A stretch of 61,381 nt of DNA, filler included, from Globobulimina sp. (lineage: Eukaryota): NCBI GenBank assembly GCA_003354225.1. It is 11 parts of 11 records of this genome, joined end to end, with 100 filler letters (N's around TTAATTAATTAA, not from the genome) between each part and the next. Parts side by side here need not be neighbours in the genome. Positions count along the whole stretch, not along the records: positions 55,899 to 61,381 come from PIVH01000550.1; 10 more parts are not named here. One strand, 5' to 3'. Both the position numbers and the translations under genes were made by a program. Each line of letters opens with the position of its first letter. The first letter of the stretch is position 1. Below, in pieces: positions 5,501 through 61,361 of this stretch. The notes under the pieces are model-generated. The model made no database searches and was not told the origin of the DNA. It saw only the letters and a list, made by a program, of their open reading frames with translations.

Positions 5501-5600
5501 NNNNNNNNNNNNNNNNNNNNNNNNNNNNNNNNNNNNNNNNNNNNTTAATTAATTAANNNNNNNNNNNNNNNNNNNNNNNNNNNNNNNNNNNNNNNNNNNN
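5501..5600. other. Artificial contig spacer N44-TTAATTAATTAA-N44; also at 11100-11199, 16695-16794, 22287-22386, 27875-27974, 33462-33561, 39048-39147, 44633-44732, 50216-50315, 55799-55898
   Basis: Identical 100-nt spacers. Contig lengths fall from 5500 to 5483, i.e. length-sorted concatenation. Confidence 0.98.
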
Positions 5601-6760: not shown

Positions 6761-7741
6761 TTACACAATGTCCAATGTACTAATTTTATAATGTTTCTTG
6801 TTGTGAGTATCCAATAAAAAGACACACTCAATCAAATAAAATGAGTGTATCAAACTTAATAAATAATGTGGAGGGAAATAATGGTCCTCAATCTCACACA
6901 TTTTCCATTGCTTTCGAACAAATCCAAATACTGTTTTTTTATCTGCCATCTCATCGTTGACTGTAATTCCGACAAATATACTTTTTGCGGGGCATTGTAT
7001 TTTAGATTTTTTTAACGTTTTTTCTTTTATTGAATAAATATAAATATCATCAAAATAACACCAATTCCCATAACCACCAAACATTAATACATATTTGTTA
7101 CGAACAGCCATCGTACAATGAACGCGCCACATTTCGTTTGGTAATGACACTTTTAATTTATTCCATTTTTTCTGTTTCATATCAAATTCCAACATGTCAG
7201 CTACGTATTGCATTGTATTATAATTATAACCACCAATTAATAACAAACAGTTAGTTGTATTATTATAAACCATCCCAAATCCAGCCAATTCTGCTGCGTT
7301 ATACATGGTACTCACTGTTGTGAATGTTTTGTTTCCTGGATTCCATTTTAAAATTGCGTTATTCTGACAACCTCCAACAACAACCAATGAATTGTCTAAA
7401 ATAAGCATCATTTTTGAGTCAATAGTTATTGGAAACACATCTCTACTGATTTTACCACCATATGCATTTAGTTGTATTTGTATCAAACTATTAGCACCCA
7501 ATATATATAGGATGTGGCTATTTGCATCGAATGCTACACCGTCACACGGATGAATATTATTTTCAAAATCAATGGCTAGATCTATTTTGGTCCACTGATT
7601 GGTATCAATATGGTATTTATGCAAATCACGTCCAATCACAATATAATTATCTTTATTTATTCCACATGGCACACGAAACAATGGACAGCCGGTTGGATAT
7701 GGCAGACAAGTCCACGCTGCTAAGGATTCAATTGTAGACAT
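6761..7741 (-). CDS. Kelch-repeat beta-propeller protein with C-terminal helical module
   Basis: LVVVGG, LLLIGGY, VLMFGGY..FDDIYIY repeats with downstream Trp; C-terminal TVFGFVR...FPPHYLLSLIHSFY. Confidence 0.85.
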   Translation of the reverse strand: MSTIESLAAWTCLPYPTGCPLFRVPCGINKDNYIVIGRDLHKYHIDTNQWTKIDLAIDFENNIHPCDGVAFDANSHILYILGANSLIQIQLNAYGGKISRDVFPITIDSKMMLILDNSLVVVGGCQNNAILKWNPGNKTFTTVSTMYNAAELAGFGMVYNNTTNCLLLIGGYNYNTMQYVADMLEFDMKQKKWNKLKVSLPNEMWRVHCTMAVRNKYVLMFGGYGNWCYFDDIYIYSIKEKTLKKSKIQCPAKSIFVGITVNDEMADKKTVFGFVRKQWKMCEIEDHYFPPHYLLSLIHSFYLIECVFLLDTHNKKHYKISTLDIV

Positions 7742-7764
7742 GGTTTAAGTGAAAACATTAAATG

Positions 7765-8802: not shown

Positions 8803-8856
8803 GTAAACAAATACTAAACAATCCTAACACTAAATCGCTACACTAACAATATTAAA

Positions 8857-10173
8857 ATGGGCGCTGTAGCCTCCAAGTCTTCCAACACAAACAATTTTGA
8901 AAAATTAAACGATTGGAATGCTGACTACGTGTCCATAAAAAACAGAAAATTACACAGAAAAAACAAGAGTTCGAGCAAATTGCCAATTGCTGTAATTTTA
9001 CAAAACAATGCGAACACGAATATAATTCCAAATCAGTTAAAATCAGCATTCCTAAAAGAAATCAATTCATTGGAATCCAAGAACTATAATTATAGATCGC
9101 AACAGTTTATATTTAATAATCCAATGGAATATTATACGCATCATCCAAGGAACTTTAATGACGACCACGACGAGAAAAATGTACATGACACAAAACCACT
9201 TATTCAGGATTTAATCGATCCGTTACTTCATCCAAATTTAACCATCAATTTATTCAACGAATATGTCGAAAATAAGTGGCCGGCGCAGCCAGATTCATTT
9301 GGCAGTGATTTCAAAATTAAATGGATTCCAGTCTTATTTGAATATGATACAAAAACAAATCAATATTTGATTAAATCAGAAATAAATGGTATTGCACGAT
9401 ATAAATATGAGGCATTATACAAAGTGATTGAAAATATATTTAATAGAACAATTCCAATGTTTGAATATATATTAAAGGTAAAAAATTTAGCTTCGACCTA
9501 TAACAAATTATATGCCATTGTTAAATGCCAGAAATATATATTTAAAGATGGTGGGATGGAATATGTTGGCCACTGGCATTGCGAAGGAAAATTTAGTTAT
9601 TCGACAAATATCATTGCAAACTGTTTATGGTATTTTGATAAATCCAATCTTTTCGTGAAGGATTCACTAAATATTTGTGCTAAAATTAAAGAACATGAAA
9701 AAAAAGGTCGCTGTGGAAATGTGAGATGGATTGAGGATGATATCATTGATGTCGATATATCCAAAGATATAATGGTTTGTTTTAATAATTTGGAGACCAT
9801 TCATCGACCAACAATAAAGGTTTCGACTGCATTGGATTTAGGCCAACAAACAAGAAAATTATTTGCGTTTTTTTTAATTGATCCGGATATCGATCCGGAG
9901 ATGAGATACATTGATATGGATGAGATGAGAGCAGTAAATTGGATGTATAAAACACATTTTATTGCAACATATTGGATGAGAGGCAGCAAAATCGAGATTA
10001 AATTCAATTTACCAACGCATATTGGCACTATTATTAATCATTATGTGTGTGGCGATGAACAATATTTAAAGGTTATTTCAAATGAGTATAGAAAAAAGAG
10101 TGAGTCGGCAAGATTTTTCAATACGCGGCCTTCAGAAAACAATAGATGGGCTATTTCGCATGGATCAGATTGA
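8857..10173 (+). CDS. DUF4246-like protein (putative 2OG-Fe(II)/DSBH oxygenase), possible N-myristoylation
   Basis: KWIP, SEINGI, LYKVIENIF..IPMFE, AIVK, GHWHCEG, FNN..H, RKLFAFFLIDP; starts MGAVAS. Confidence 0.7.
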   Translation: MGAVASKSSNTNNFEKLNDWNADYVSIKNRKLHRKNKSSSKLPIAVILQNNANTNIIPNQLKSAFLKEINSLESKNYNYRSQQFIFNNPMEYYTHHPRNFNDDHDEKNVHDTKPLIQDLIDPLLHPNLTINLFNEYVENKWPAQPDSFGSDFKIKWIPVLFEYDTKTNQYLIKSEINGIARYKYEALYKVIENIFNRTIPMFEYILKVKNLASTYNKLYAIVKCQKYIFKDGGMEYVGHWHCEGKFSYSTNIIANCLWYFDKSNLFVKDSLNICAKIKEHEKKGRCGNVRWIEDDIIDVDISKDIMVCFNNLETIHRPTIKVSTALDLGQQTRKLFAFFLIDPDIDPEMRYIDMDEMRAVNWMYKTHFIATYWMRGSKIEIKFNLPTHIGTIINHYVCGDEQYLKVISNEYRKKSESARFFNTRPSENNRWAISHGSD

Positions 10174-11099: not shown

Positions 11100-11216
11100 N
11101 NNNNNNNNNNNNNNNNNNNNNNNNNNNNNNNNNNNNNNNNNNNTTAATTAATTAANNNNNNNNNNNNNNNNNNNNNNNNNNNNNNNNNNNNNNNNNNNNG
11201 TTCCAAGCACTCGAAC

Positions 11217-16694: not shown

Positions 16695-16794
16695 NNNNNN
16701 NNNNNNNNNNNNNNNNNNNNNNNNNNNNNNNNNNNNNNTTAATTAATTAANNNNNNNNNNNNNNNNNNNNNNNNNNNNNNNNNNNNNNNNNNNN

Positions 16795-19651: not shown

Positions 19652-20365
19652 CTAAGTGTAGTTAGTCAGTGTAGAACATGAATAAATTTCAATCTCGCGC
19701 GTCTTGAAATGACTTTCATCGCCATTTAAATAGTACGGAGCTGGAATGAAATAACCAGTCGCTGCTGTCCATGATAACCGATTTGTATTTGAGTGGGACC
19801 GAATGGCGATATCATTGCCTCCAAAACAGCACATATACAGATTACCACCGTTAAATATTGCATTTCGTCCATTATCTGTGTGTGCAAAAATTTGTGGTGG
19901 ATAATTTTTTGATGATCTGATTAATATTAAAAATGCATCCTTATCATCACTGTAAGTGCTCTTAGTTTTGGTTGCGACAGAAAGATATCCACCAAATACA
20001 TTGTCGGAAACTGTGTGTATTACACTCACAGTATTTCGTATATTGTCACATTTCCTATGCCAATCTTGTACCTTCCAACCATCCCTACTCGCTCTATAAA
20101 TCAAATTCCATTCTTTATATTGAATATTTTTATTTGATTCCTCCATTAAACGTAAAAAGATTGTACTTTCATTCTCGGTCAAAATTAATGAATCAATCAC
20201 TTGGTTTGTTATTTAATATTGTATTTACAACAAAAATATGCATTTCAAATTAACATATTACGTACGGATAAAATAGAAATCAAAACAAATTTTATTCAAT
20301 GATTCGGGAATTATTTGCCCATTTAAATATTGTTGAAAAGATCGCATGTAACCATCAATCAACAA
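19652..20365 (-). CDS. TLDc-domain protein; exon 20365-20266, intron 20265-20200, exon 20199-19652 (first exon not located)
   Basis: LIYRASRDGW, HRKCDN, NVFGGY, DKDAFL, FGGND, EIEIY. Upstream exon reads LLIDGYMRSFQQYLNGQIIPESLNKICFDFYF. Confidence 0.88.
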
Positions 20366-20660
20366 CTAATTATGGAATATTGTGCGTATTTGTTTCTTGA
20401 CAAAGAATGAATCAAATATTGTTAACAATGCTTTGTATTTTAGTCAAGATTAGTGCTGATTGTGACATGATAACGTAAACTCTAAAAACTTCAGCAGGTT
20501 TTTTCAAAAGACTAAGAAATCAATATTGATATTTTACAAACCGAATTAAAAGTAAGTAAATCAACATAAAATGACACACGAAAGAGAGGAGTAACACATC
20601 TGAAAATAATTAACAAAACAAAATGTTTCTATAAACAATAGTATTTAATATACATTATAA

Positions 20661-25073: not shown

Positions 25074-26284
25074 TTAGAATCCCCTGCAACCAGAGCGTAT
25101 TCCTGGGCCACTTTCATCATATTCATCGATGGTGATCCATCTTTCATCAAAGGTAGATAACGCGGACAAAATTGAAGCCCCAATCCATGTCAAATATTTC
25201 CGATTCGGTGGTGAAACAATATTAATCTGCTCAACACCGAAATGTTTATAAATCAAATGAATAATATCACCATATAACACTCGATCATTTGCATATTCTC
25301 TCAAATATCCATCAACTGTCAACTTTGAAATCAACAAATCATCCATTTCATGATATAATCTCTCTTCAATCCCTTTGAACATCGTATTACCTCCGCATAA
25401 TATAACATTTCCAAATAATTCCGATCTTATCTCAGTATCACATTTTATCACAGCATCATAGATCAGTCTATGAATACCATCCATTGCTTCCTTACCAATA
25501 ATGTTTGGATCAAACAGTATCTCCAAACATTTAGATTGAGATACTTTATCATCAATATTTATGACAGCACCATCTGGTAACTTATATTGCATACTTCCTT
25601 TTTCCTTCATACTGTTGACATCCTCAACACGGATACAATTACAATCATAAGATTTGAAGCAATTGTTCATCAAATAATTTGTTATATCATTTCCACCAAA
25701 AGTCGATCTTTCTACAGCACCAAGTATTACACCGCCTGGGTTCCTGTCGTATGCACATTCTTCATGTATTGGTACTGAATATGTTGCATTCAGACCAGAG
25801 TCCAAAACAATTCCTGATTTTCTTCCAGTGCCATATAATGCGCACACTGCATCGACTTCATATTCCATTGCAGCAACATTGAAGGTTTCAAACATAATTT
25901 CAATCATTTTTTCTCTGTTTGTTTTTGGATTTAATGGTGGCTGAGTCAATAATACAGCAATGGTTTCTGGTTCTGGCTTTATTTTAAGTTGGTTATAAAA
26001 TGTATGATGCCATAGTTTCTCCATTTCGTCCCAATTTCTAACAATTCCATGTTGTATTGGATGGTTTATTATTAAATCATTTCTTTTAAAATCTGCATTA
26101 TTGCCAACAAAACAGCAAGTCTCTTGTTTATTTTTTGCATTCTTCGATTTGCATGTAATTGAAGGAAATATAACCTGTGGCAAATTATCACCGGAAAATC
26201 CTGCTTTATCTGTCCAGATCCATTATCAATCACCACCACAGTACACTCGTCGTAACTTTCTTCTTCATCCTCATCAGATGACAT
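25074..26284 (-). CDS. Divergent actin-like protein with a 1-nt frameshift near 26205 and an internal helical insertion
   Basis: VVIDNGSGQIK/AGFSGDNLPQVIFPS, HPIQHGIVRNWDEMEKLWHHTFYN, NREKM, ILCGGNTMF, WIGASIL, EYDESGP. Confidence 0.88.
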
Positions 26285-27974: not shown

Positions 27975-30900
27975 ATAATAATGACAACACCGCCTAATAC
28001 CCATTTGTCCGGATTGTGTTTTGTTTTAAGTGGCGCAGTAAATACAAAAGTAGGACCTCTTTGTTGAGTTTGATAGACCGGACATTGATAAATGCCATTT
28101 TTCTCTTGTTTTGAGGATAATATGGTTTTACAATTCACCACTGGCAAAGGCGAAATCATTTCTCTTGGCTCGGATTCTTGCAATATAGATTGCTGTACAT
28201 TCCATTGTGCGCCTTCCAGGTTTAAACCAGTAATATATGCCCCATCTCTCGCAGGTTCGTCAATATCCGATGGCAGTTTCCTTGTAACTTCAGTAATGAT
28301 CGCTAGTTTATCCAATTCTAAATTATTTTTTCTAGCGGCCACCTGCATCACTGCAGTTAAAAATGATTGTGGGTTGAATAAATATGCAACATTGACGACA
28401 GAGGGTATTGATGTTGGATTATCGACCCATTCTTGTAATTGCTGTGCCCTTTCTATTAAATCTCGTATCCATGACGGCAAAGCGCGCAATGATGGAAAGG
28501 CTAAATTACTCCATGTTGATGGTATGCGCTCAAAAAATAAGGACTCCTGCAATTCTTCCATTCGCTCAGTCATTGTCAGTTCGCCGTGTAAACCTAAATC
28601 CAACTCCGCCAATGACCGCTTCATTTCGGTAATCAATTTATTCATTCTTTCGCATTCTTGCAAAAATACATATTGATACGGTCCTCGATCTTCAATACAT
28701 AGCGATGACAATATTTCATCCATATCAAACGATATATCGTCCATTTTATCTAAAATTTCTTCTAAAATTGATGCAGCTCTTTGTTGTGGATTCTGGGCAC
28801 TATCCGATGTTGAATTATCTTTTGGTTGTAATTCCATAATAGAGGCAAATAAATCGGTTGATTCTTGCGTTCTGACTGCGATCTCTGTATTTGGATGCAA
28901 ACCATATATTATTGGCGACTCTGTACTTGGGAGGTATTCATCCATATAACTAAAATATTCATCATACTGCAATGCACCCGGCGCATTAAAGGTGCTCTCA
29001 TCAACCTTACTTTTGCACTCCTCCTCTACAAAAGGGATCATATTTAATTCGTCAAATAACTCATTTTTCATATAATATTTGAGATACGTATTACATAACA
29101 ATCGATCCCAATCATCCGTAATATGGCCACCATACATAATCTCACCAAATATATATCGTAAATCTGCCCAAGGTATCTTATTTGAGGAGGCATTCTCTAA
29201 CTTATTTACTAACACAGTACCACTATTCACCAAATCGCCCGTATTAAATGGATACACTGCATTCCATCCTTTCGGGCCAAACTTTTTACGTTCAATCATT
29301 ACAGCATGGAACCAGCATAATGCAAATTGAATGGATTTAACTTGCGATTCGCGGAAATCAAATTCTTGTTTATCAAAGGAGGCAAATGCCCGCTTTAAAT
29401 TTGCTTTCATGCCTTCTGGTGGTTCGTTGGTTAATTTTATGGATCTCTCTAAGATTCCAATTGGTATTCCCGATGATGGTTCGGCCGATAAAAATACTCG
29501 AAAATCATCATGTGTCTTTGCTTGTGGTTCACAATATTCATCTAAACATTTTTCTAATTCTTTACACCATTTTGGCATTAAATGAATATTTTCTAATACG
29601 ACCCAATGTCCTTCGCGATGTGCTAGCTCTAATGTTTTCATTGCAATCACATCCTGTCCTTGGCCCATGGCAACGCGATGATATTTACCACTCGATACTA
29701 AGCCACGTTTGTTTGCAATGTTATATACAGTTTGCACTGGATCTGCGCCTGCAGACAATATAAAAAATACTGGCGTCGAATTATTACTGTCATCTAACGA
29801 GGATGTCAATACTTCATGGAATGATTTACCTGCATCCAATTCTATATATAATTGCCCGTTTGGCAAGGCAGAAGCTACAAATTTGCTGATTGCTACAGTC
29901 ATTCTATCCGGTCGCATACATCGAACAATACATAATTTTGCAAATGGATCTTCTGTATCTAATTTTCGCCAATCTAAGGGTAATGAGGATTGTTCCGGTG
30001 CTTGTTTTAAATACCATTCTTTAAATCTATTTGGTGAGGCCACTAAATCAGATACAAATCTCTCTAAACCGGTGCCCGATGAACCACTTAATTCACACAA
30101 TTTGCATAATCCACTCCATGCTGCATCGGGTAACCAAGCAATTGGATTTTCAACGCCATATTTTCTTTGGCCAAAGATTAAAAATTGAAAATAGGTGGCA
30201 TCATATTTTATTTTATCGCCTAAATGAGCCAATGCATTTTTTTGCATTAATTTGAATGTTAACTGAGATGAAAATATTAATTTAGGTTTTTCAAATAATC
30301 CGCGCGAGACCCACGTAAACACAACAAATCTTATCTCATCTCGCAAAAATAAAACTCTTTCATTTACGTTTTCAGATTTTTTCGCTTTTACCATTGCTTT
30401 ATAAAAAAATGTGATGAATGCATCTAATGAATATTGGTACATATGGTCAATAACATTTAATTGAATTAATAAGAAATAAATCCACGATGCTTCCTGCGCA
30501 ACACTTCGATACTCATTCCGGGCATTATTGATTTCAATCTCTTTTTCTTTTGCTTGTTTTACTTTGATTTCAATCTCTTTCGAGGCTTTTTTCGTATTTT
30601 CTAAACCTTCAATCAATGAAACATCCGATAATATATCATCTGGCGCATTACTTAATTTATATAACAATTCATTCTCTAAATCGTTTAATTTCACCATATA
30701 TTGATTAATACTTCGCATTAATAATCTTTTTGTTTCTTCTAATTCTGGTTTTTCATCATTCACAACCAATGCTAATAACTGTTCTTCCAAACCATTCTCT
30801 GTGACAATAAAATTAATTAATGTACATTGCGCAAATAATTCCGGTCTATAATTTGGATTCGATAATTTGGTTTGTAAATATAATTTAAACTTTGGATCAT

Positions 30901-33461
30901 AATCTTTCTCTTCGCCGGCAATCTTTATTCGCATACTTCGCCCTTTTTTGATGATGGCCCGCGAAAGAATTGGATCTAAGGTTGGATCAATATTTTCCGA
31001 CACATTCTCGATCAATACGGTTTTGCCTTGTTCTACACATCGAATCATTAACGATAACCAACGCGGATGGTTTAAATTGATGATTACCAGACCATCATCA
31101 CCGCCGCAATGATTACGTATCCATTTAATGCCTTGTTGTTGCGGATCAATCATCAATGGCCATCGACTACACATGGTCACAATGGCCGCATTCTCAATGG
31201 ATATACTGTCCACCGGCAGTCCTTCATTTGCCCATCGGGCTTGATCCGAAACAGTGGTTAATACATCTTTTGGTAATAATTCCCCGCTGGCAATACTGTC
31301 ACTGAGCGGGATTTGTTTATCAATCAAATCGGATAACCAATATTTTTCCCACAGTTCTTTACGAAATGACGAATTAAAGGCACCAATATAGGATACAAAG
31401 GCAGCGGATAACAAGACGTCACCAACTAAAGTATGCTGCTTTTTCTCTAAATTACTGATTCCTAAGCTCCATCGTTTATTTTCATCGGATAGGCCACCGA
31501 CTAACCTCTCCGCCAATTCTAACCTGTCCTGACATGCAGCAGCATCCGCTTCTACTTTATTTTTCTCGGCGATGGCTGCTTGCAATTCATCCGTTACACG
31601 TTTTAACAGTGCTTCTTTTGCTGCAACATCTCGTTCTACTTTTTCAAGAATGGCCATTGCTGCGGCATGTTCCGCTTCTGCTTCACGAGCTGCTGCCATT
31701 TTTGGTGCCACTTCCTTATATATTCCGTTATATTGCACAATTGCAACTACCCAAACACATAAGTTTGCAGCAGCTACACTAATTTTACTCATTGCAGTCT
31801 TATTAAAATATTCTTTCTGTAATACGGGGCCCACTAATTTTAATAATCCAGCATCAATTTCTTCAGCATTATAATTTTCTAATTCGCGTTTGAATGCATC
31901 CACATTTTTCATCATTGATTGAGATCTCTTCCATGAATGATTCTTTTTTTCCCCATCTTTTAATATTAATACAGCTTTGGTAACATCTAATATTTTGGGA
32001 TCGGGTGTTTTTAATGATTTTAATTCTGTCAATGATGCTTTGGTCAAACAATTGACGGCATTTTTAGCTGCATTCAAGGCTGGCATTGCTTTTTTTAATG
32101 TCTCCTCACATTCAGCTTTTATGCCATTGGCGCGTTGCAATACAATCGAAGCTTTAGCTTTTTCTTCCAACGCAATCGCTTTCTCAGCATCTACTTTTAC
32201 TCGTTCTTTACCACATTTTTCAATTAATAAATTTGCGGCAACTTTTTTTTCTTCCACAATTTCTAATTTCTTAATTAAATCTTCTTTTAAAGAGGCTACA
32301 TCTTTGGCTGTTTTCTGCAAAGTTGCGATACCTTTATCTAATCTCTGTATTTGTTGATATAATTCGTCAGATTGTTTCTTAAATAATTTCTTATAAAAAT
32401 CGATTAATTCTAAAAATGATTTTGGTGTGGTATAATTATATCTTTTTTCCACTTGGAAATATTTATCTGACATTGTATTTACGCTGATATGGTCATGCGC
32501 CATATGGTGGGCAATTTTATCCCGCTGTTCATCCGATAATATATCCGCTAATTCTTCAGATTCGCCCAAAAATCTATACGCAACAGAGGTTAATGCATCG
32601 TAAGGCCATGCAAAAAACCAATCCAATGATGTACAATTAATCAATGCGGGGAATTTACGACAGCGGACTCGAAATGCTTCACCAACGGGACTGAAACATA
32701 AAACTAAATGCAGGTTTTTGCTCACTTTATTAATAAAATATTCGTGCATCTTATATCGATTTGTATCATCGATATTATTTGCTTTAAATTCACTTCGTAA
32801 ACTCTGATATATTGAATCTTTCTCATCCTCACCAAATAATGATGGTATATCACCCGAGGATAATAAATCATTAATATAAACTAACCATTTTTCATCGACA
32901 ATTTGCGAATCAGTCAACATAAAACTAACTCCTTCATTTTTTACGCCGCATCTCATATATAATTGTTTAATATCTTCTAACAAATCAACAGATGAATATA
33001 AGCGAGTGACTTGGATTTGAAATACTTGGTAGCCACAAATCCACGAAGCTAGTCTGGTTAGTGACTGTTTACCGGAACCACCGACGCCAATTAAAAATGC
33101 GTTTCCTTTTGGACTCGATATGATGCGCGCAATGCGAACAATGTGATTCATCGCCATCTCGAACAATACTAATGGTAATTGGGCGTTGTTCTCATTGTAA
33201 TCTGCTAAAAAACATTCCAACGATTTGTTTAATTCCGAGTATGATTGTATTGGCGTATACGCTTTTTCGCTATGTATAAATGAACCAAATAATAATGGCT
33301 GCGCACTTAATTCGTCTTGATCATAATCTGCAAAATTCTTTTTACTTAATTCTTTAACAACATCTGTAAATGCATCCACATCATGTTGATCAATTAAACG
33401 ATCACCAAATACGCGGGTTACTTCATGTACCCATAAGCGAATAAATTCAATTTCATTTAAT
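27975..33461 (-). CDS. Axonemal dynein heavy chain (outer-arm beta-like), AAA4-stalk-AAA5-AAA6-C-terminal region; partial at both ends
   Basis: GVGGSGKQSL, LHLVLCFSPVG..FR.R.R.FP, YTTPKSFLE, RWPLMIDPQQQG, GEIMYGGHITDDWDR, RGPTFVF..LK....KWVLGGV. Confidence 0.97.
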
Positions 33462-44732: not shown

Positions 44733-47011
<2,279 letters not shown>

Positions 47012-47172
47012 TTTTGTGTTTGTTTGTGAGACAAAGGATTGGCCAAACAAGTCTGCAAAGTTTAGTGGTTAAGTTAAAATTTACAAAAACAAAAACAAAA
47101 AAAAACAGAAAAACGCAGTTTGGTTTTGATTTTGGTTAAAAGGTTTTTTTCATAAACCCTAACAGTTAGACC

Positions 47173-49950
47173 ATGGATGAGAATGATCCGTTTGCTGCGT
47201 TGGTTCAGGAAATGAACTTAAAGGATGAAGAAGAACCAAAGCAAACTGTAACAACTATGCCAATTGCAACTGCTCCAACCATACCAACTGTGTCAACTAT
47301 TCCAAATACAATAAATCATGTTATAGAAAAGCAGACAATTGTTATTAATAATGAGCCAGAAGAAGAAGAAGAAGAAGAAGAAGAAGAAGAGGAAGAGGAA
47401 GAAGAAGAGGAAGCGGCTGAAGCAGAAGCGGAAGGGAATGATTTTTTAGAATCAATAAATAATATAACATCAATATCTGAATTACAAAATAAATTTATTT
47501 TATTTTCTAAAAAGAAAGAGAATGAAATGTATGAATTAAAGAATAGGTTCACAGAGATATCTCGCCGTCAAAAAGACGTATTTATCGAAGTAGAGAATCG
47601 TCGAAAAACTGCACTATCAAAAGGCAAAAAATACAAACAAACTGCACAGAAATTGCATTATCAAATAAATAAATTAAACAATGATTTAAAATTTGCGAAA
47701 AAAAAGAATCAAGAATTAAATGAGGAAATTGGTACGATTCGAGAACATAAAAAACAAAGAGATGATGCTATTGAACAGTTGACGAAGAATATAAATTTAT
47801 TAAAATCAAATTTGAATCAAACTGAACAGTCAAAAGATTTAATTTTAGACGAATTCAAACAAACTCATAACATCATCGATAAATTAATACAAAATGAAAA
47901 AATACAAGAAAAATTAAAATGTTTTATACAAATCTCAGATAAAAAAAACAGTAATTTATCAACTGCAAAATTAGAGTTTTTGGATGATTCAATTGATACA
48001 AAAAGCATTTCCATCCAATGGAACCGGTCATATTTTAGTGATTTGATCGCGATCAAGAATGCCAACGGTTTGGTATATAATTTATCGGCGGATGACATTG
48101 GCAGTATAATTAAAGCCGAGGTTCGCTCCAAAGACAATCCCGATTGTTATCAAACGGCCACATTAAAAAATGGAGCGGTTTGTATGCATAACACATCAAA
48201 TAAAATTGTTCAGGACAATTTATTAAAAATTAATAAACAACAAATTGAGTTTGAAGTTGAGCCAGATTTAACCGATCAAAACACTTCAAAGCAATTATTG
48301 GCGAAGATGACCAACAAAAATAATAAAAATAACAATAAATTGCTTGTTTTACATTTTAACAAAGACAAAATCAAATTGCGTACAGTTAAAAACGCCACCA
48401 TCGATAAAGAACAATATAATGACAGTATGAAGATAACATTATCGAGCATCCATTCCAACAGATTTTCGTTTAAGTTTTCCGCTTCCAAAAAATATGTATT
48501 TTTAAGCAAAAACAGCGAGATTCGGGACAACATTGCCATATTATTACGATGTTACATTGAGAGACTAAAAAGTAATAACAATAACTTTTTGTGTGAATTT
48601 TATTTGCGACTAAGTAATGAAAAGAGAAACTATGAAATATTAAATAAATCCAAAGGCGACAATACATTGACGAGAGACGAGTTAGTCTCCAAAATATTGG
48701 CTCCAATCTCCAGTAATCCAAATTCCTTCACTTCATTGTCGTCGTTTAATGTTAATGTTAATGCGCCAATCTCCAATTCATTGAAAGTGTTATCTGCGCC
48801 GCCAATATCAAGCAATTCAAATACAAATAAACAAACTGAACCGGAATTTGATGTCGATGAAATATTCCCAGATTTTAATCAAGAAAAAGAAAAAGAAAAA
48901 GAAAACGAAGCAGAAGAAGACGAAGAGGAGAAAAAAAAAGATGATGATGAGATATTATTCGATGCGAATGAGCCTGATCTCGAAACTCAAAATCAACACA
49001 AAAAAGCATGGAAAAAATTGCAATTTTCAGAGAAGGCAACCATTGCAACCGAAAAAGAATTAAAACAAAACGCGCTTTTTATGCCCACTCCAATTTCAAG
49101 CAAATCCAGCAAATCACACAAAAAAGCGACAAAATCTAAAAAAAAAGGGAAAAAAAAGAATTGCATATCGTTGATGGCAGAAATGAGCGATCGATTGGAC
49201 TGTTTGTTAAATAGCGATGGTGCGGTGATAAAGTATCAGGTCGTTGGAAGTTTGACATTACGCAATATCTCAAAGAAAGAAATTATAATCAAACAAGAGA
49301 AATATTTTTATGCATCGATTAAGAATTTAAACCTCACAAAAACAAAAATATTTAATCCCAAAAACATTGAGCAATTAGACTCCAATGCAAATACTCAAAA
49401 TATTCGCGTAAAATTGACTGGCAATAATAAAGATATCGGGGTATTGAAATATGTGTGGAATACAAAAGAAATTAAGCAAAGTTTACCATTTTTTATTCAA
49501 TTAAAAGAAGAGAAGCAAGAAAATGAAGAAAAAGAAGAGGAAAAGAGTTATATTTATACGATTTCGTGTATACTGAAACCAAACGATTTAATTAATGGCG
49601 AAATAAAAGAATTTTCAATAACCGGATCATTAAAAAATGACGTGAATGAATGTGTATTTTGGAATTCCGAATTAAAAGAAGAGGGAATAGATTTTCTTTG
49701 GTCCCAGGATATTTCAAAAAAATTTATGTGGAATATAAAAAATAATAATATCGATAAAGAATATATTTTAATTTCAAAATTTAAATCAAATACAAATGAT
49801 AATAAAGTTCAACTAAAGATACAATTTGAAATTCAAAATGTTGGTATTTCAACAATAACAATTTCCAATCATAGCACCAACCAAAATAATGATGCAAACA
49901 TTGTAAAAACAATTAAAAATATTCGTTCTGGTGAATTTATTCTTCGCTAA
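47173..49950 (+). CDS. Coiled-coil + SCAB/AIR9-like Ig + PH-like + C-terminal mu-homology-like domain protein
   Basis: IQWNR...ANGLVYNLSADDIGSIIKAEV (Ig); KIKL...KEQYNDSM...RDNIAILLR (PH-like); DRLDCLLNSDGAVIKYQVVGSL...FMWNI...KIQFE...IRSGEF (MHD-like). Confidence 0.6.
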   Translation: MDENDPFAALVQEMNLKDEEEPKQTVTTMPIATAPTIPTVSTIPNTINHVIEKQTIVINNEPEEEEEEEEEEEEEEEEEEAAEAEAEGNDFLESINNITSISELQNKFILFSKKKENEMYELKNRFTEISRRQKDVFIEVENRRKTALSKGKKYKQTAQKLHYQINKLNNDLKFAKKKNQELNEEIGTIREHKKQRDDAIEQLTKNINLLKSNLNQTEQSKDLILDEFKQTHNIIDKLIQNEKIQEKLKCFIQISDKKNSNLSTAKLEFLDDSIDTKSISIQWNRSYFSDLIAIKNANGLVYNLSADDIGSIIKAEVRSKDNPDCYQTATLKNGAVCMHNTSNKIVQDNLLKINKQQIEFEVEPDLTDQNTSKQLLAKMTNKNNKNNNKLLVLHFNKDKIKLRTVKNATIDKEQYNDSMKITLSSIHSNRFSFKFSASKKYVFLSKNSEIRDNIAILLRCYIERLKSNNNNFLCEFYLRLSNEKRNYEILNKSKGDNTLTRDELVSKILAPISSNPNSFTSLSSFNVNVNAPISNSLKVLSAPPISSNSNTNKQTEPEFDVDEIFPDFNQEKEKEKENEAEEDEEEKKKDDDEILFDANEPDLETQNQHKKAWKKLQFSEKATIATEKELKQNALFMPTPISSKSSKSHKKATKSKKKGKKKNCISLMAEMSDRLDCLLNSDGAVIKYQVVGSLTLRNISKKEIIIKQEKYFYASIKNLNLTKTKIFNPKNIEQLDSNANTQNIRVKLTGNNKDIGVLKYVWNTKEIKQSLPFFIQLKEEKQENEEKEEEKSYIYTISCILKPNDLINGEIKEFSITGSLKNDVNECVFWNSELKEEGIDFLWSQDISKKFMWNIKNNNIDKEYILISKFKSNTNDNKVQLKIQFEIQNVGISTITISNHSTNQNNDANIVKTIKNIRSGEFILR
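47359..47412 (+). repeat. (GAA/GAG)n coding microsatellite (poly-Glu)
   Basis: Direct reading of the sequence. Confidence 0.9.
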
Positions 49951-54656: not shown

Positions 54657-55798
54657 ATAGTAGTGGAAAAACATTCAGCCTGGATCTATATCAGGCTCCA
54701 TACTCACCGATTGCTTAAACATCCCGGTGAGACTGTTCACAACATCAAATGATAAATCATCTGGAAATTGGAACAGTTTATATTTTGCGTAACGCACAGA
54801 ATTGAAATTTATGTGTATTAAGTTGGAATTGTTGGGATGATTTCTGCCAATATCTGCGAGAACATCTGCCACTGCATTGAATGGTTGTTGTGGAGTGGTG
54901 TGTGATTTTACTTTCCAAAGTATTATTTTGTTCTTTTTTATGTAATTTTGCGTTTGTTTGAAATATAGGGAATGGGGCATTTTATTGACATTTTTTGGTG
55001 TAGTAATTAAAGGAATGAAGTTGCAAAGGGAATCAGTGAAGATAAAGATTCTTCGATTTTTTGTTGTTATCTTATAACGTTGTAGGAGGAAATTCGATTT
55101 TAGCATAGCATATAGCTCTCCAAAATTGTTGGATTGAGGGCCTAATGGTTGTGTGAAACAATGGATATTTTTATTGTCTTTAATGAAGATCCCTATTCCT
55201 GTGGTATTTGTGGCAGGGTTGTGTGAGGAATCTGTCGCAATTATTAGATCTGTGGGTAATAGTTTCTTTTTATAATTATTCCATTCATTTATGTTATCAT
55301 TACGGATGTGGAAAATGATCATGTTATCTGGAACCATATTATGTTTGGCCATTATTCTTCTTATTGTTGTTTTAGAATCATTTAGTTGCTGCATGTGATG
55401 AAGCCATCTGTGTGTTTGCGAAATTATATTATTATAAAGTGTATTTCTGGAAGTATTTATATTTATGCGATGATGGGTATAGATGAATTTGTTTGAGTCC
55501 GTATCATACAGATTTGCGCCACAAATAATGTTCCAAAGGTTAGCTTTATTTATGTTTACATTGGAGCATATTTCAATTAATCTTTGCATATATATTTGGT
55601 TATGGATTTTGTTAATTGCGGCACCATTTTTTGCAAAGACAGAGCTTGCATGGTTCCAGTATTCCAATCTCAATGTATTTATTGCAGGGCAGTATATTGA
55701 GAGATGTACTTCAATTGGTTTGCTTGTTCTGGTGTAGCAGCAATTACAGTGATTAAGTTTTTGGTTGAAATTATAGAATAATTCTCTATATATCTCAA
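54657..55798 (-). mobile_element. Non-LTR retrotransposon 3' region (zf-RVT + RNase H), open frame to the contig edge
   Basis: YRELFYNFNQKLNHCNCC...IEVHLSIYCP; ATDSS, SNNFGEL, FTDS, WKVKSH, FNAVADVLA; ends DPG-TGA, then ATGTTTTTC-CACTACTA. Confidence 0.88.
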
Positions 55799-55898: not shown

Positions 55899-56872
55899 TT
55901 GATAATATTCGTTTTCTCATTAATTTTATGCGAACATGAATATATTTTTGGTGTATTTACCATTTCATTTTGCTCTGAACTGCATTGGTTATATTTGTTA
56001 GCTCCAAAACAATACAATTTATGTTTTATAATATCAATACACGATGAATGTTGAGAGCCGCAGGATATTGATGTTTTAAAACATTTCTTTTCAATGAATG
56101 CAGTGATGGCAGCGATTTGATTTGGATTTACTTGCATGTCACCAATGCCACATTGGCCGTAATCGTTATTTCCCATTGAATACACTCTGCCATCCATGGA
56201 AAGAAACAATGAGTGATTTTTACCACACTCGATTTGTATAATATTGACATGTTGCAATGATGCAAATTTATTAAAGGACTGTCCTCGTATTTTAGAAGTA
56301 TAAATATATCCATTCTCGTATTTTATGGCTATATTTCCTGCGCAAATTCCGTTGCTCATTAACAAAATATTTGTGCCTAAACTTACATTCTCATTATGTC
56401 CAATGCCATATATCTGTTTATTGGCTGCTTTTATGAAATATTTAGAAGCACAATGATAAATATTCTCTGTTGAATATAACATAGATTCCCATTCATATAA
56501 TCTCTCCATTTGGTTGGTATATTTGGGTGATAGACTGCAATTGGATGGCAGTGATGTTATAGACACAGATGATATGGAGGGGGATGGACTGGCATCGTGG
56601 GAATGTGACAATGGTTTACAATCTATTCTTGTTTTGCTAATTTTATAGATTTGATATAATAATGGCACATAGGATGTAATTAATGTCATCACAGCCATTG
56701 GTATTTTAGAAAAAAAATGAAAATTCGTGCATGCATACGTGTGATGTAATATTTCGACATTACAATATCTATGAACTAGAACACTTCTATAATCCTTATA
56801 ACTGCATTGTAAGGGAGCTGTGTTCGATTTAATATTTTTATTTTCTTTCTGCTGTGATTGCTGACTGCCCAT
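55899..56872 (-). CDS. RCC1-repeat protein, possible N-myristoylation, 3'-partial
   Basis: MGSQQS; IECGKNHSLFL..DGRVYSMGNNDYGQCG, ISCGSQHS, YCFGANKYNQC. Confidence 0.85.
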
Positions 56873-57334
56873 ATATAATGTTTATTATTTAGTAAAACTG
56901 TCTTACTTCAGTGATAATGTGATGAGGGAACTGTTGCGTCGTTTGCAATGTATTTGCCTGCATCCGCAATATGATGGCGCTCATACCAGCTACAAAAATT
57001 TAATTTGTAGAAAGAAAGAAAAACAAAATTTATATGGACTTCGACAAGAAACAGTGTTTTCTGTGGGTGTCCATATATCGTGGCTCTTTTGTATGTATAC
57101 CATAAAGTGCACCATGTTTCTATATTTCCCCTTATTTTGAGGACAACGTTTTTATGGAAAGAGCCATGTGGTATGTTGCTATACATCGTTTTGGTCCATA
57201 CGACTTTAAACGAACAACATGTTGAGCAGATACAAAACAGCTTTTCTATTTATCCCGGATTGTATACTGAAAATTGAAATTGTATATAGTCCGATAAGCT
57301 AAGGTGAAGGTTATTTATCACTTTACACTCCGAC

Positions 57335-58663: not shown

Positions 58664-60010
58664 TTATGAGTCTTTATTGTCTTTACAATTACCAATTGAT
58701 ATTCGTGTTTCCTTACATCCAGGATAAATATCAATTATTTCTTGATATTTATAAAAATAGTTTGAATCAAATAATAATGGTTTCTTAATACATTGTGGTG
58801 GATTGCCATCATGAACATATAAACATTGATTATATCTATTATCCCCCCATAAATAATATTTATTATCCGCTGTCTTAATAATATTATGATTTGAACCACA
58901 TTTAATATCAATAATTGTGTCATTTTTTAATGTTTCATTTAGTTGTGGTAAATATACATTTTTAGTTGAACCATTTCCACATTGATACAGATTATTCCTT
59001 CCAAAACAATATATCTTATTTATTAATATGACAAAACAATATAAAAATAAATAAACACAACACAAAAAGATCAAAACTTGATTATTTAATGATAATAATA
59101 TATTATGATAAGTACCACAACATATTTTACCAATTTTAATATTGTTTTGAATAAAATATTGTATTCTTGTTGGTGAATATCTATTATTAGCATCTCCGTG
59201 ACCTAAAATACCATATCCACCATATCCCCATGACCAAACACCATAATTATCATCAATTGCTAACGTATGTAAATACCCACAGTATATATCCTTACATTTT
59301 ATTTTTATTTGAATTTCTTGAATATTTGGGGATGATTTGATATCTTTACCTAATCCTAAACCACCATGACCATAATCCTTACCAGCAACATATATTTTAC
59401 CGTTTGCACTTAAAAATGTTGTATAACAACTTGATGTGGCTACTTTTTGAATCGATAATGATGTATTAATTGGTGTCCATTTATTATTACTTTCTTCATT
59501 TGTTTTTATGCCGAATTGTTTATCATAATTTGATCCGACAGCATATAATTTGTTCTCATTTGAAATACAAAATGAATGTTCTGATCCATTTGGTGCTGAA
59601 AATATATTTTTTATTTTCATATGTTTTATTTGATGCCATATATTAATATCATTATTATTATGTCCAACACCTAATACACCCCTTTTATTAGAACCACAAC
59701 CTTCATATGTTTCATCATCAAATAAAATATATGCTGTTACACCAAAACTACCACCACAAGTAACAATATTTTTTATTTCTTTTTGAAATGTTTTTATTTT
59801 TGTTATTTTTCCAATATCTTCATTTCCTCCATTGCCTTGTTGTCCATATTCGTTGTTGCCAATAGAATATAATTCCAAGAAAATTGTATAATGGAATGCA
59901 TGGATAACATTAATAATATCCATATGGATGTATTGAGAGCTAGATTTTCTAACGTATCCACTTACTAATAATTGTGAACGTCTTTTCATGACAGCATAAT
60001 ACCGGTTCAT
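58664..60010 (-). CDS. RCC1-repeat protein with N-terminal helical module; in-frame intron 59077-59015
   Basis: YSIGNNEYGQQG, CGYLHTLAI...VWSWGYGGYGILGHG, CGTYHN, CGSNHN..YYLWGDN. VLIFLCC...INK is a 63-nt GT-AG intron. Confidence 0.9.
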   Translation of the reverse strand: MNRYYAVMKRRSQLLVSGYVRKSSSQYIHMDIINVIHAFHYTIFLELYSIGNNEYGQQGNGGNEDIGKITKIKTFQKEIKNIVTCGGSFGVTAYILFDDETYEGCGSNKRGVLGVGHNNNDINIWHQIKHMKIKNIFSAPNGSEHSFCISNENKLYAVGSNYDKQFGIKTNEESNNKWTPINTSLSIQKVATSSCYTTFLSANGKIYVAGKDYGHGGLGLGKDIKSSPNIQEIQIKIKCKDIYCGYLHTLAIDDNYGVWSWGYGGYGILGHGDANNRYSPTRIQYFIQNNIKIGKICCGTYHNILLSLNNQVLIFLCCVYLFLYCFVILINKIYCFGRNNLYQCGNGSTKNVYLPQLNETLKNDTIIDIKCGSNHNIIKTADNKYYLWGDNRYNQCLYVHDGNPPQCIKKPLLFDSNYFYKYQEIIDIYPGCKETRISIGNCKDNKDS

Positions 60011-60089
60011 TTTTTGGCGAAAAAAAGTTTACTATTAATAACTTGTTTTTAACTTTTATACTGTGCAAAACCAGCAGTACAGTGTGTAA

Positions 60090-61361
60090 ATGGCAGATGA
60101 TACAAAAGAAGAGGTAAAAGCCACTGCAAGCGCTTCCAACAATTGCAAAGAAATCATAACAATCAATATTGGCGGGTGTGGTGTAGCATTGGGTCAAACA
60201 TTATTACAACAATACTGTGCTGAACGAGGCATAGCCGAAAATGGCACAAAAGAGGCAAAATCAGCACATGATGATAGTCTATCAATTCAATTTGATGAAA
60301 CGCAGAAAGGCAAATATAAAGCCCGCTCATTAATGATCGATTTAGATCCATATACAATAAATAACATTAACAATGTATATACACATAAATCATTATTAAA
60401 TAAATCCTATTTAATCTCTGGCAAACATGACTCGTCGAGCAACTTTGCAAATGCATATTATATTTCTGGCAAACAATTAATTGATTCCATCAGTGACCAA
60501 TTACGAAATGCAGCTGATGCCTGTGATAATTTGCAAGGTTTTATAGTAAATCATGCGATATCTGGCGGTACGGGCTCTGGATTAACCTCCTTAATTTTGG
60601 AGAAGATTGCCAATGATTTTAAAGGAAAAACTGTGGCGGCCTATTCCACTATGCATGACGAGACATTTTTGTCGCATCCAACACAGGTTTACAATGCGGT
60701 GTTGATGATGCAACATATTAAAGATGAAAATGTTTGCCATTACTCAGTGATTTTAGATAACAAATCATTATATCAAATTGTCCAAAATGAGGTAGGAATT
60801 AAGACGCCAAGATTTAAACATTATAATTATATGTTAAATAAGTTAATATCATCGATAACCACACCGGCGAGGTATAATATCAATAATTGTAATTTGCAGA
60901 CATTACAAAGGGAATTGGTTCCATTTAAATCATTAAAATATTTAACAAGTTCGATGTGGCCAATTATACCAAAGAAAGAGAAGGAAATCATTTATAAAAA
61001 AGATATTCAATCGTTAATAAATCAATGTGTGCAAAGTAAGAATTTTATGACAAAGACATATGATTTTGATGCTGAGGAGGATAAATATATTGCATTGCGA
61101 TTTAATTTTCGAGGGAATGAAATCTATAAAGTCAAAGATAAAGCAATGGAGTCACTTGAATGGATTAGGAAAGAAAAAAAAGTTACGTTTTTGGAAAAAG
61201 TAAAAAACGCAAATATTGGCACACAATTTCATGATTCTGTGCCATGTGCATTAAGCAATGATGATTTAACTGATATTTGTAACCAATCGGTAATGATTGG
61301 AAATAATACCTGGATAATTCGGTTATTTTCAGAGCGGATGTCAAAAATATATGATTTGTAA
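60090..61361 (+). CDS. Highly divergent tubulin (alpha-like)
   Basis: KEIITINIGGCG, RSLMIDLDP, SSNFA, ADACDNLQGF..HAISGGTGSG, YNAVL, LDNKSLY, ISSITTPARY, LVPF, KYIA...FRG, MIGNNT. Confidence 0.88.
   Translation: MADDTKEEVKATASASNNCKEIITINIGGCGVALGQTLLQQYCAERGIAENGTKEAKSAHDDSLSIQFDETQKGKYKARSLMIDLDPYTINNINNVYTHKSLLNKSYLISGKHDSSSNFANAYYISGKQLIDSISDQLRNAADACDNLQGFIVNHAISGGTGSGLTSLILEKIANDFKGKTVAAYSTMHDETFLSHPTQVYNAVLMMQHIKDENVCHYSVILDNKSLYQIVQNEVGIKTPRFKHYNYMLNKLISSITTPARYNINNCNLQTLQRELVPFKSLKYLTSSMWPIIPKKEKEIIYKKDIQSLINQCVQSKNFMTKTYDFDAEEDKYIALRFNFRGNEIYKVKDKAMESLEWIRKEKKVTFLEKVKNANIGTQFHDSVPCALSNDDLTDICNQSVMIGNNTWIIRLFSERMSKIYDL

Follow-up and report, generated by a model that had tools for sequence, protein, structure and literature searches.

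A short two-block protein module that recurs on unrelated foraminiferal proteins: a candidate docking box

A stretch of 61,381 nucleotides from the foraminiferan Globobulimina sp. (assembly GCA_003354225.1; hereafter the window, meaning the whole of the DNA analysed) encodes a short protein module that recurs on otherwise unrelated proteins and is very probably real and homologous in a core set of carriers. The module consists of an N-block with the consensus hhhxG[Y/W]hR (h, hydrophobic; x, any residue), a linker of 3–14 residues, and a C-block with the consensus hPx[D/E]hhxLhxx[F/Y], giving a total of about 30–40 residues. An earlier, sequence-only reading of the window had listed eight copies, and translation finds all eight peptides at the coordinates and in the frames cited, distributed over five of the pieces from which the window is composed. 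Judged by sequence scores, three of these are solid copies, at the N-terminus of a first RCC1 protein, in a Kelch protein and in an exon of a TLDc gene, and two more are probable, one inserted in a paralog of actin and the other N-terminal in a second RCC1 protein; the remaining three, in a DUF4246 protein, in a membrane protein and as a half copy, lie within shuffled controls. The suggestion that the module is independent of position holds, as it occurs at N-termini, in a C-terminal region, as loop inserts, and at three different sites within a single RCC1 family. We tentatively favor, as the best explanation as a whole, that the module is a self-contained box that docks to a shared partner, with a cullin adaptor as the likeliest partner class.

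Anatomy and recurrence of the module

The consensus of the N-block across 41 instances is h-h-h-x-G-[Y/W/F]-h-R, with the aromatic residue present in all 41, the arginine in 29 and the glycine in 26. The C-block reads h-P-x-[D/E/Y]-h-h-x-L-h-x-x-[F/Y] over the same instances; its proline is found in 33 of the 41, its terminal F/Y in 37, and its three core hydrophobic positions in 40–41. Conservation ends at this terminal F/Y in alignments of both 40 and 13 instances. The hydrophobic moment of the C-block reaches its maximum at 90–100 degrees, indicating a helix, and is down to 0.16 at 180 degrees, while the N-block is too short for a helix or strand call by this means.

The broadest recovery of window copies is given by a two-block position-specific scoring matrix (PSSM) of 8 + 13 columns with a free linker of 2–24 residues, built from 41 instances outside the window. 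The first RCC1 N-terminus scores 38.8, the Kelch copy 37.1, the TLDc copy 25.5, the actin copy 23.5 and the second RCC1 copy 21.7. Shuffling the window 40 times gives a median score of 15.7, with 20.1 at the 95th percentile and nothing above 21.1. The membrane protein (14.5) and DUF4246 (12.2) copies are noise by this measure, and the half copy is absent from the list. When the blocks are scored separately, the four best N-blocks among 1300 six-frame open reading frames (ORFs) are those of the first RCC1 N-terminus, actin (the second best), Kelch and TLDc, and each is followed by a C-block; the C-block of the membrane protein (11.0) is under the shuffle median of 13.7. Strict regular expressions matched just 1–2 of the sites.

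Profile hidden Markov models (HMMs) separate a smaller set of copies from the controls. A model of 40 instances from outside the window scores the Kelch copy at 43.8 and the first RCC1 N-terminus at 34.9, with a shuffle median of 9.5 and a maximum of 14.5. A second model, restricted to the GY type (13 instances from 11 non-window proteins, with no TLDc or Kelch protein included), gives 28.0 bits to the TLDc exon and 27.0 to the first RCC1 N-terminus, where the maximum of 100 shuffles is 12.2; under this model actin reaches 6.2 on its N-block alone, the membrane protein reaches 7.2 on its C-block alone, and the remaining copies stay below 0. Comparisons of profiles with hhalign support a common origin of the RCC1 and Kelch modules: the RCC1 N-terminal profile matches the RCC1 internal profile with a score of 22.4 (E 1.5e-5; best of 60 column shuffles 11.2), and the Kelch profile matches the RCC1 N-terminal profile with 16.3 (E 0.0014; shuffle maximum 12.3).

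Module copies, their hosts and other carriers

The module of the first RCC1 protein (59888..59971, minus strand) has an LLVSGYVR-type N-block, a 6–7-residue linker and the C-block helix, and is conserved in the paralog P0002 and in Bolivina relatives. Its host lies in a frame at 58667–60028 on the minus strand (Pfam WD40_RLD 4.5e-54, RCC1 1.8e-39), in which the ORF counted from its methionine (58667..59989) encodes 441 residues with an RCC1-like seven-blade propeller. The same ORF contains a probable unspliced in-frame intron at about 59015–59077 (minus strand), a T-rich, stop-free stretch of 63 nt bounded by GT...AG, which is not present in the Bolivina relatives and is modeled with low confidence by AlphaFold2 (AF2).

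The Kelch copy (6836..6937, minus strand) is located in the C-terminal region of a six-blade propeller protein and is composed of the N-block KTVFGFVR, a 13-residue linker and the C-block PPHYLLSLIHSFY. The propeller frame is at 6764–7744 on the minus strand (Pfam Kelch_KLHDC2_KLHL20_DRC7 9.6e-19) and the ORF from its methionine, 6764..7741, encodes 326 residues. Five of six close relatives carry the whole module and the sixth, P0118, stops within it. No other 10-residue stretch in this family is as conserved as the N-block, which has a mean column identity of 0.86 versus 0.56 overall.

The third solid copy had been placed in an exon of the TLDc gene that the ORF track missed, and the sequence agrees with an exon of its own. 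The module, LLIDGYMR ... IPESLNKICFDFY, is encoded by a putative 100-nt exon at 20266..20365 on the minus strand, with an AG acceptor before it and a GTACG donor after it, both splice sites being predicted from sequence. A putative first exon at 20427..20468 (minus strand; ATG plus 13 codons, then a GT donor) is in frame with the module exon, and the exon for the TLDc domain (19655..20199, minus strand) is in phase with it, one base and two bases together making a codon; the TLD-domain ORF as such extends over 19655–20212 on the same strand (Pfam TLD 1e-17). We infer a gene of three exons from this arrangement. A metagenome scan with the TLDc ORF returned a single locus (L001), a spurious match with a GC content of 0.51 and bacterial-like sequence.

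The probable copy in actin, LTVDGYLR ... YGDIIHLIYKHF at 25239..25322 on the minus strand, occupies a surface loop of a divergent actin paralog (25077..26222, minus strand; Pfam Actin 4.5e-81). It is for this copy alone that an intron has to be weighed, in which case the 90-nt segment at 25227–25316 would be an ordinary or facultative in-frame intron and the mature actin would have no module. This segment begins with GT, ends with AG and is in frame, and its excision yields exactly the canonical actin length; it is the sole such 90-nt GT..AG pair among 91 nearby offsets, with a background of 0.0021 per offset, and canonical introns occur in foraminiferal actin genes according to the available part of PMC3079666. 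We nevertheless regard an intron here as rather unlikely. The PSSM score of the copy exceeds all 40 window-wide shuffles, the codon usage of the segment (+0.20 bit per codon) is that of the rest of the actin whereas putative introns have values of -0.0 to -0.43, its GC content is 0.31 versus 0.23–0.25 in the TLDc introns, and chance in-frame GT..AG pairs are also found around the Kelch module (six) and the second RCC1 module (two). Contigs from four public runs, of a kind that is unknown or guessed, cross the insert without a joint, which is not decisive for splicing. Related contigs from public runs are set apart from the actin paralog mostly by non-synonymous differences, which make up 7 of the 13 in X1 and 8 of the 10 in one contig of X4, and one of the differences converts the conserved glycine of the module to glutamate; this pattern suggests either relaxed constraint or the presence of several paralogs.

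The second RCC1 protein (ORF 55901–56881, minus strand, with a Pfam match to the propeller) has a probable divergent module at its N-terminus (56666..56782, minus strand), consisting of VLVHRYCN, an 18-residue linker and IPMAVMTLITSYV. Its PSSM score is borderline, just exceeding the highest of the shuffles, while its C-block alone, at 16.1, is third in the window and is in register with the P0010 module by blastp; HMM scores for this copy are at most 5.3. Adjoining this gene is an ORF with an RNase H domain (54678–55796, minus strand; E 1e-7), which may be a retroelement remnant.

Pfam confirms the host domains that had been named, RCC1 (twice), TLD, actin, Kelch and DUF4246, the last with a match at 8818–10170 on the plus strand; two membrane-like ORFs have no Pfam family in the scan of the window. 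The module had been proposed to be grafted onto enzymes, actin paralogs and membrane proteins. The actin graft is probable; because the DUF4246 and membrane protein copies fail, the window shows no grafting onto an enzyme or a membrane protein.

Searches outside the window enlarge the set of carriers. The first RCC1 protein has 114 matches at E≤1e-5, and a leave-one-protein-out PSSM finds the module in 19 of them, N-terminally in 6 and internally in 13; it is absent from the RCC1 proteins of bacteria and plants among the 114. In an alignment of 11 proteins of the RCC1 family the module is a clean indel at three sites, which are the N-terminus, a position after blade 1 (P0013, P0010) and a position after blade 2 (P0019, P0041, P0048, P0064). 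Against 1.84 billion representatives, a 26-segment profile has 18 matches at E≤0.001: ten Kelch-family proteins, P0128, one RCC1 protein, four new carriers and two false matches. This number does not establish the very large family that had been expected. The four new carriers are P0124, which has two tandem copies, P0125, with two copies and a transmembrane region at its C-terminus, and two small proteins, P0126 and P0130; the two false matches are P0123, which is of low complexity, and P0133, a kinase-NACHT protein with FPPEDLV repeats. P0128, from the EukProt Bolivina argentea set, has a Kelch-type module together with an 'ND..KxEK' lead-in at residues ~98–135, N-terminal to the start of its Kelch propeller, an arrangement that could reflect circular permutation or tandem-gene read-through. 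A word-indexed search returned mostly its own seeds and added the orphan carrier P0138, P0139, in which the module precedes a PP2A B56 domain (Pfam 2.2e-31), P0141, in which it precedes a weak match to SPRY (Pfam E 0.0087, which misses the cutoff; PDB HERC1 SPRY E 0.21), and four more internal RCC1 carriers.

The sources of 30 of the proteins were looked up, and 18 are from EukProt Bolivina argentea, three from NCBI, one from JGI and eight from ENA/Logan. The available part of PMC8153729 describes B. argentea transcriptomes obtained from field-collected cells, from which the EukProt set may derive. By sequence comparison, the module is conserved between the organism of the window and Bolivina argentea and is thus common to at least two lineages.

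Candidate roles and comparison with known boxes

AF2 models of two hosts place the module off their propellers. For the Kelch protein (mean predicted local distance difference test (pLDDT) 71, predicted template modeling (TM) score 0.72) the model is a six-blade propeller in which the C-block forms a helix at residues 292–301, within a segment of pLDDT below 50 (263–303). Strands at 306–311 and 316–321 follow downstream, and the module is thus predicted to be an insert within the last blade and not a free tail. For the first RCC1 protein (44 aligned sequences) the mean pLDDT is 89.4 and the predicted TM score 0.87, with the propeller at 95 or above; the C-block is a helix at residues 23–31, and residues 1–18, which include the N-block, are below 50. 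In both hosts the module is at pLDDT below 50–57 and packs on neither propeller. As loops of RCC1 and Kelch proteins, and probably of an actin, accommodate the module, its two ends presumably lie near each other.

In the reading that we favor, the module is placed at the N-terminus, near the C-terminus or as a surface-loop insert, unpacked on its host, and would become ordered upon binding a shared partner and thereby tether many different domains to one machine. A partner-docking function of some type we consider rather probable. The likeliest class of partner would be an adaptor of a cullin-RING ubiquitin ligase (E3), the module doing the job of an F-box, a BTB domain or BC/cullin boxes; this identity is a guess, plausible and at the same time doubtful. 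Counted in its favor are the Kelch, RCC1, SPRY-like and B56 domains of the carriers; the lack of any BTB, F-box, SOCS or RING domain in the 27 carriers scanned; and the fit of the Cul2-box pattern phi-P-x-x-phi-x-x-x-phi, as given in the available part of PMC4878042, to 33 of 48 segments versus 5.8 in shuffles. Also counted is the finding that the best PDB sequences for the Kelch profile are KLHDC10 (3.9e-9), KLHDC2 (2.4e-7) and KLHDC3 (8.7e-7). Among RCC1 proteins of other protists that do not carry the module, P0071 has an F-box-like domain and P0106 a BTB domain. A further and fairly unlikely proposal is that foraminifera evolved their own ligase-recruitment box in replacement of F-box, BTB and SOCS boxes. 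Such a lineage-specific box would couple Kelch, RCC1, SPRY-like, TLDc and B56 domains to a cullin-RING or other degradation machine, and would be tolerated in domain loops, even that of an actin paralog, and in tandem.

The sequence-only reading had likened the module to SOCS boxes and F-boxes, and Pfam comparisons return no HMM match to either SOCS_box or F-box. The eight excised window segments give nothing on the module at E≤10, neither SOCS_box nor F-box, and the 26 module segments give no recurrent family, five families being matched once each at E 0.07–0.2, with the limitation that HMMER filters discard most matches above ~0.1. A profile search of PDB with the module yields only chance matches to T-cell receptors (E ~9), and the precomputed Pfam lists of the carriers contain host domains only. 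The statement that the module has no named domain holds, in that no curated family of Pfam-A (2025) covers it, and no account of the motif was found in Pfam or in the literature searched, which did not extend to supplements or the Reticulomyxa genome paper.

General resemblances to several known boxes can be described. As in VHL and SOCS boxes, the module has ~40 residues and is helical, with a short first block followed by an amphipathic helix that is initiated by a hydrophobic residue and proline, and it is found on Kelch, SPRY-like and other recognition domains; VHL/SOCS boxes occur at either end of proteins and at times in multiple copies (in part after the available text of PMC4878042). 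The module differs in its G-aromatic-h-R signature, which is without counterpart in the consensus as published in the available part of PMC4878042, and in being found also within domain loops; neither an Elongin nor a cullin is encoded in the window. The C-block also resembles helix 1 of the F-box, and hhalign sets proline on proline with the P0071 F-box; moreover, the module is often N-terminal to propellers, and its carriers have no recognizable F-box or BTB domain. The F-box is a three-helix domain of ~45 residues, in which conserved helices 2 and 3 follow the LPxE helix. No counterpart of these two helices is seen in the module alignments, AF2 building one helix and then host strands, and the module differs further in the extra conserved block that precedes its helix. 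Protist F-boxes are reported to be difficult to detect (PMC9485057, available part). With KLHDC2, KLHDC3 and KLHDC10 the Kelch host shares a propeller of six blades and, toward the C-terminus, a short helical element that is conserved, but the Kelch blades are all that aligns. KLHDC10 has a C-terminal BC/Cul2 box in the available text of PMC10591846, and KLHDC2 and KLHDC3 are listed as VHL-box proteins in that of PMC4878042.

Several results weigh against a docking box of the cullin-adaptor type, or against the unity of the module on which it depends. HMMs of 10 and of 15 seeds taken from relatives only score the TLDc copy at 10.6 bits and 9.8, and the actin copy at 6.5 and 7.5, where the highest shuffles reach 6.8–12.5 and 5.9–14.1, respectively; both models retrieved just those window copies that have their own relatives among the seeds. 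The 40-instance HMM places TLDc at 10.3, within the shuffles, and actin outside the top 15, with the membrane protein at 6.6, the second RCC1 copy at 5.3 and DUF4246 at -0.4. For recovery above shuffled sequence, small and broad models fail with TLDc and actin, and the GY-type model succeeds with TLDc and the first RCC1 N-terminus. The Kelch and RCC1 internal profiles match each other with a score of only 8.9, which is not significant (shuffle 95th percentile 9.9). With regard to the E3 boxes themselves, SOCS_box is matched by none of the 26 segments, F-box by one at E 0.11 and LisH_TPL by one at 0.2; the BC-box pattern (S,T,P)Lxxx(C,S,A)xxx-phi fits one of 48 segments (0.69 in shuffles) and the Cul5-box LP-phi-P none of 48, both patterns as in the available part of PMC4878042, and the Cul2-box pattern is degenerate, matching any proline-capped amphipathic helix. 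Alignment to the P0071 F-box, the sole F-box available, scores 10.7–11.4, where the shuffle 95th percentile is 9.6–11.4 and the maximum 12.2–13.7. A specifically KLHDC-like identity of the Kelch protein is weakened by Foldseek, in which its model matches generic six-blade Kelch domains (TM 0.53–0.69) with KLHL and Keap1 propellers ranking first; and the AF2 model positions the Kelch module between strands of the last blade, whereas the BC/Cul2 box of KLHDC10 is located after the propeller. The tandem copies, the copy in an actin loop and the transmembrane carrier are fitted better by a general docking tag than by a classical substrate-receptor box. Finally, the low AF2 confidence over the module may reflect shallow alignment, the Kelch alignment having only 7 sequences and the RCC1 alignment few rows, out of 44, that include the N-terminal module.

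Three other explanations of the module can be set against a docking box. One is that it forms an integral part of the structure of each host family, packed on that host's own domain, and that the likeness across families is the convergence of a proline-capped helix placed after a hydrophobic stretch. The pattern is indeed short and of low information, several of the cross-family HMM tests failed, and three of the eight copies cited are chance look-alikes. Convergence nonetheless seems very unlikely, given that an HMM from other families detects the TLDc exon at more than twice the best shuffle, that the significant profile–profile scores exceed all 60 of theirs, that a single propeller family has the module as a clean indel at three sites, that each of the four best N-blocks of the window is followed by a C-block, and that AF2 packs the module on neither propeller.

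The two remaining explanations accept the module as a unit and assign it a different role. It could be a self-association element, a helix-loop-helix hairpin that pairs into a small bundle such that carriers dimerize or co-assemble; the wide hydrophobic face and helical periodicity of the C-block agree with this, as do the unpacked position of the module in the AF2 models, the tandem copies in P0124 and P0125, which could pair within a chain, and the hairpin-like closeness of ends that loop insertion requires. AF2, however, builds neither an N-block helix nor a hairpin, and the invariant aromatic residue and the arginine resemble a recognition determinant more than bundle packing, so that we judge self-association improbable. 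Alternatively, it could be a localization tag that anchors carriers to the microtubule/actin transport system or to a membrane and not to a ligase. An actin paralog, the transmembrane protein P0125 and a PP2A B56 subunit are among the hosts, tandem copies would suit anchoring through avidity, and an E3-box signature could not be demonstrated. Most carriers, though, have propeller or SPRY-type recognition domains, the customary partners of ligase adaptor boxes, and a localization tag is in our estimation quite unlikely.

Window context and significance

The window (1–61381) consists of 11 pieces of ~5.5 kb each, concatenated with N spacers at 5501–5600, 11100–11199, 16695–16794 and so on, each joint being composed of 12 bases between two runs of 44 N. 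As the pieces are joined artificially, genes on opposite sides of a joint are unlinked. The DNA is AT-rich and eukaryotic, with a GC content of ~0.29–0.43, and Rfam and tRNA scans over the whole window gave no match. Among the other genes are one for a dynein heavy chain, represented by its C-terminal 1828 residues (27977–33460, minus strand), and one for a divergent tubulin (60090–61358, plus strand). A frame at 44735–46618 (minus strand) is eEF2-like (GTP_EFTU, D2, EFG_III) and runs stop-free into the middle of a thymidylate synthase (profile positions 83–184); the junction, near 45030–45060, might mark a fused gene, a pseudogene or a chimeric assembly. An AGA triplet is repeated in 18.7 copies at 47358–47413 (plus strand), within an ORF of 926 residues (47170–49947) that has no Pfam family.

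F-box, SOCS/VHL box and BTB modules organize whole regulatory systems and are hard to detect in deep protist lineages, and foraminifera, which are major participants in marine carbon cycling, have a poorly known cell biology. The module described here appears to be lineage-specific, under clear constraint, and mobile between the termini and loops of homologous proteins. As a clear case of a mini-domain that tolerates insertion into folded domains, it is relevant both to domain evolution and to protein engineering. Should the partner be mundane or absent, what is left is a new motif of a small family. A common partner, if the module does mark one, could be traced through it, and many proteins now called hypothetical could be annotated; and if foraminifera did evolve a ligase-recruitment box of their own, then gain, loss and relocation of the module would rewire the targets of protein degradation in this lineage.

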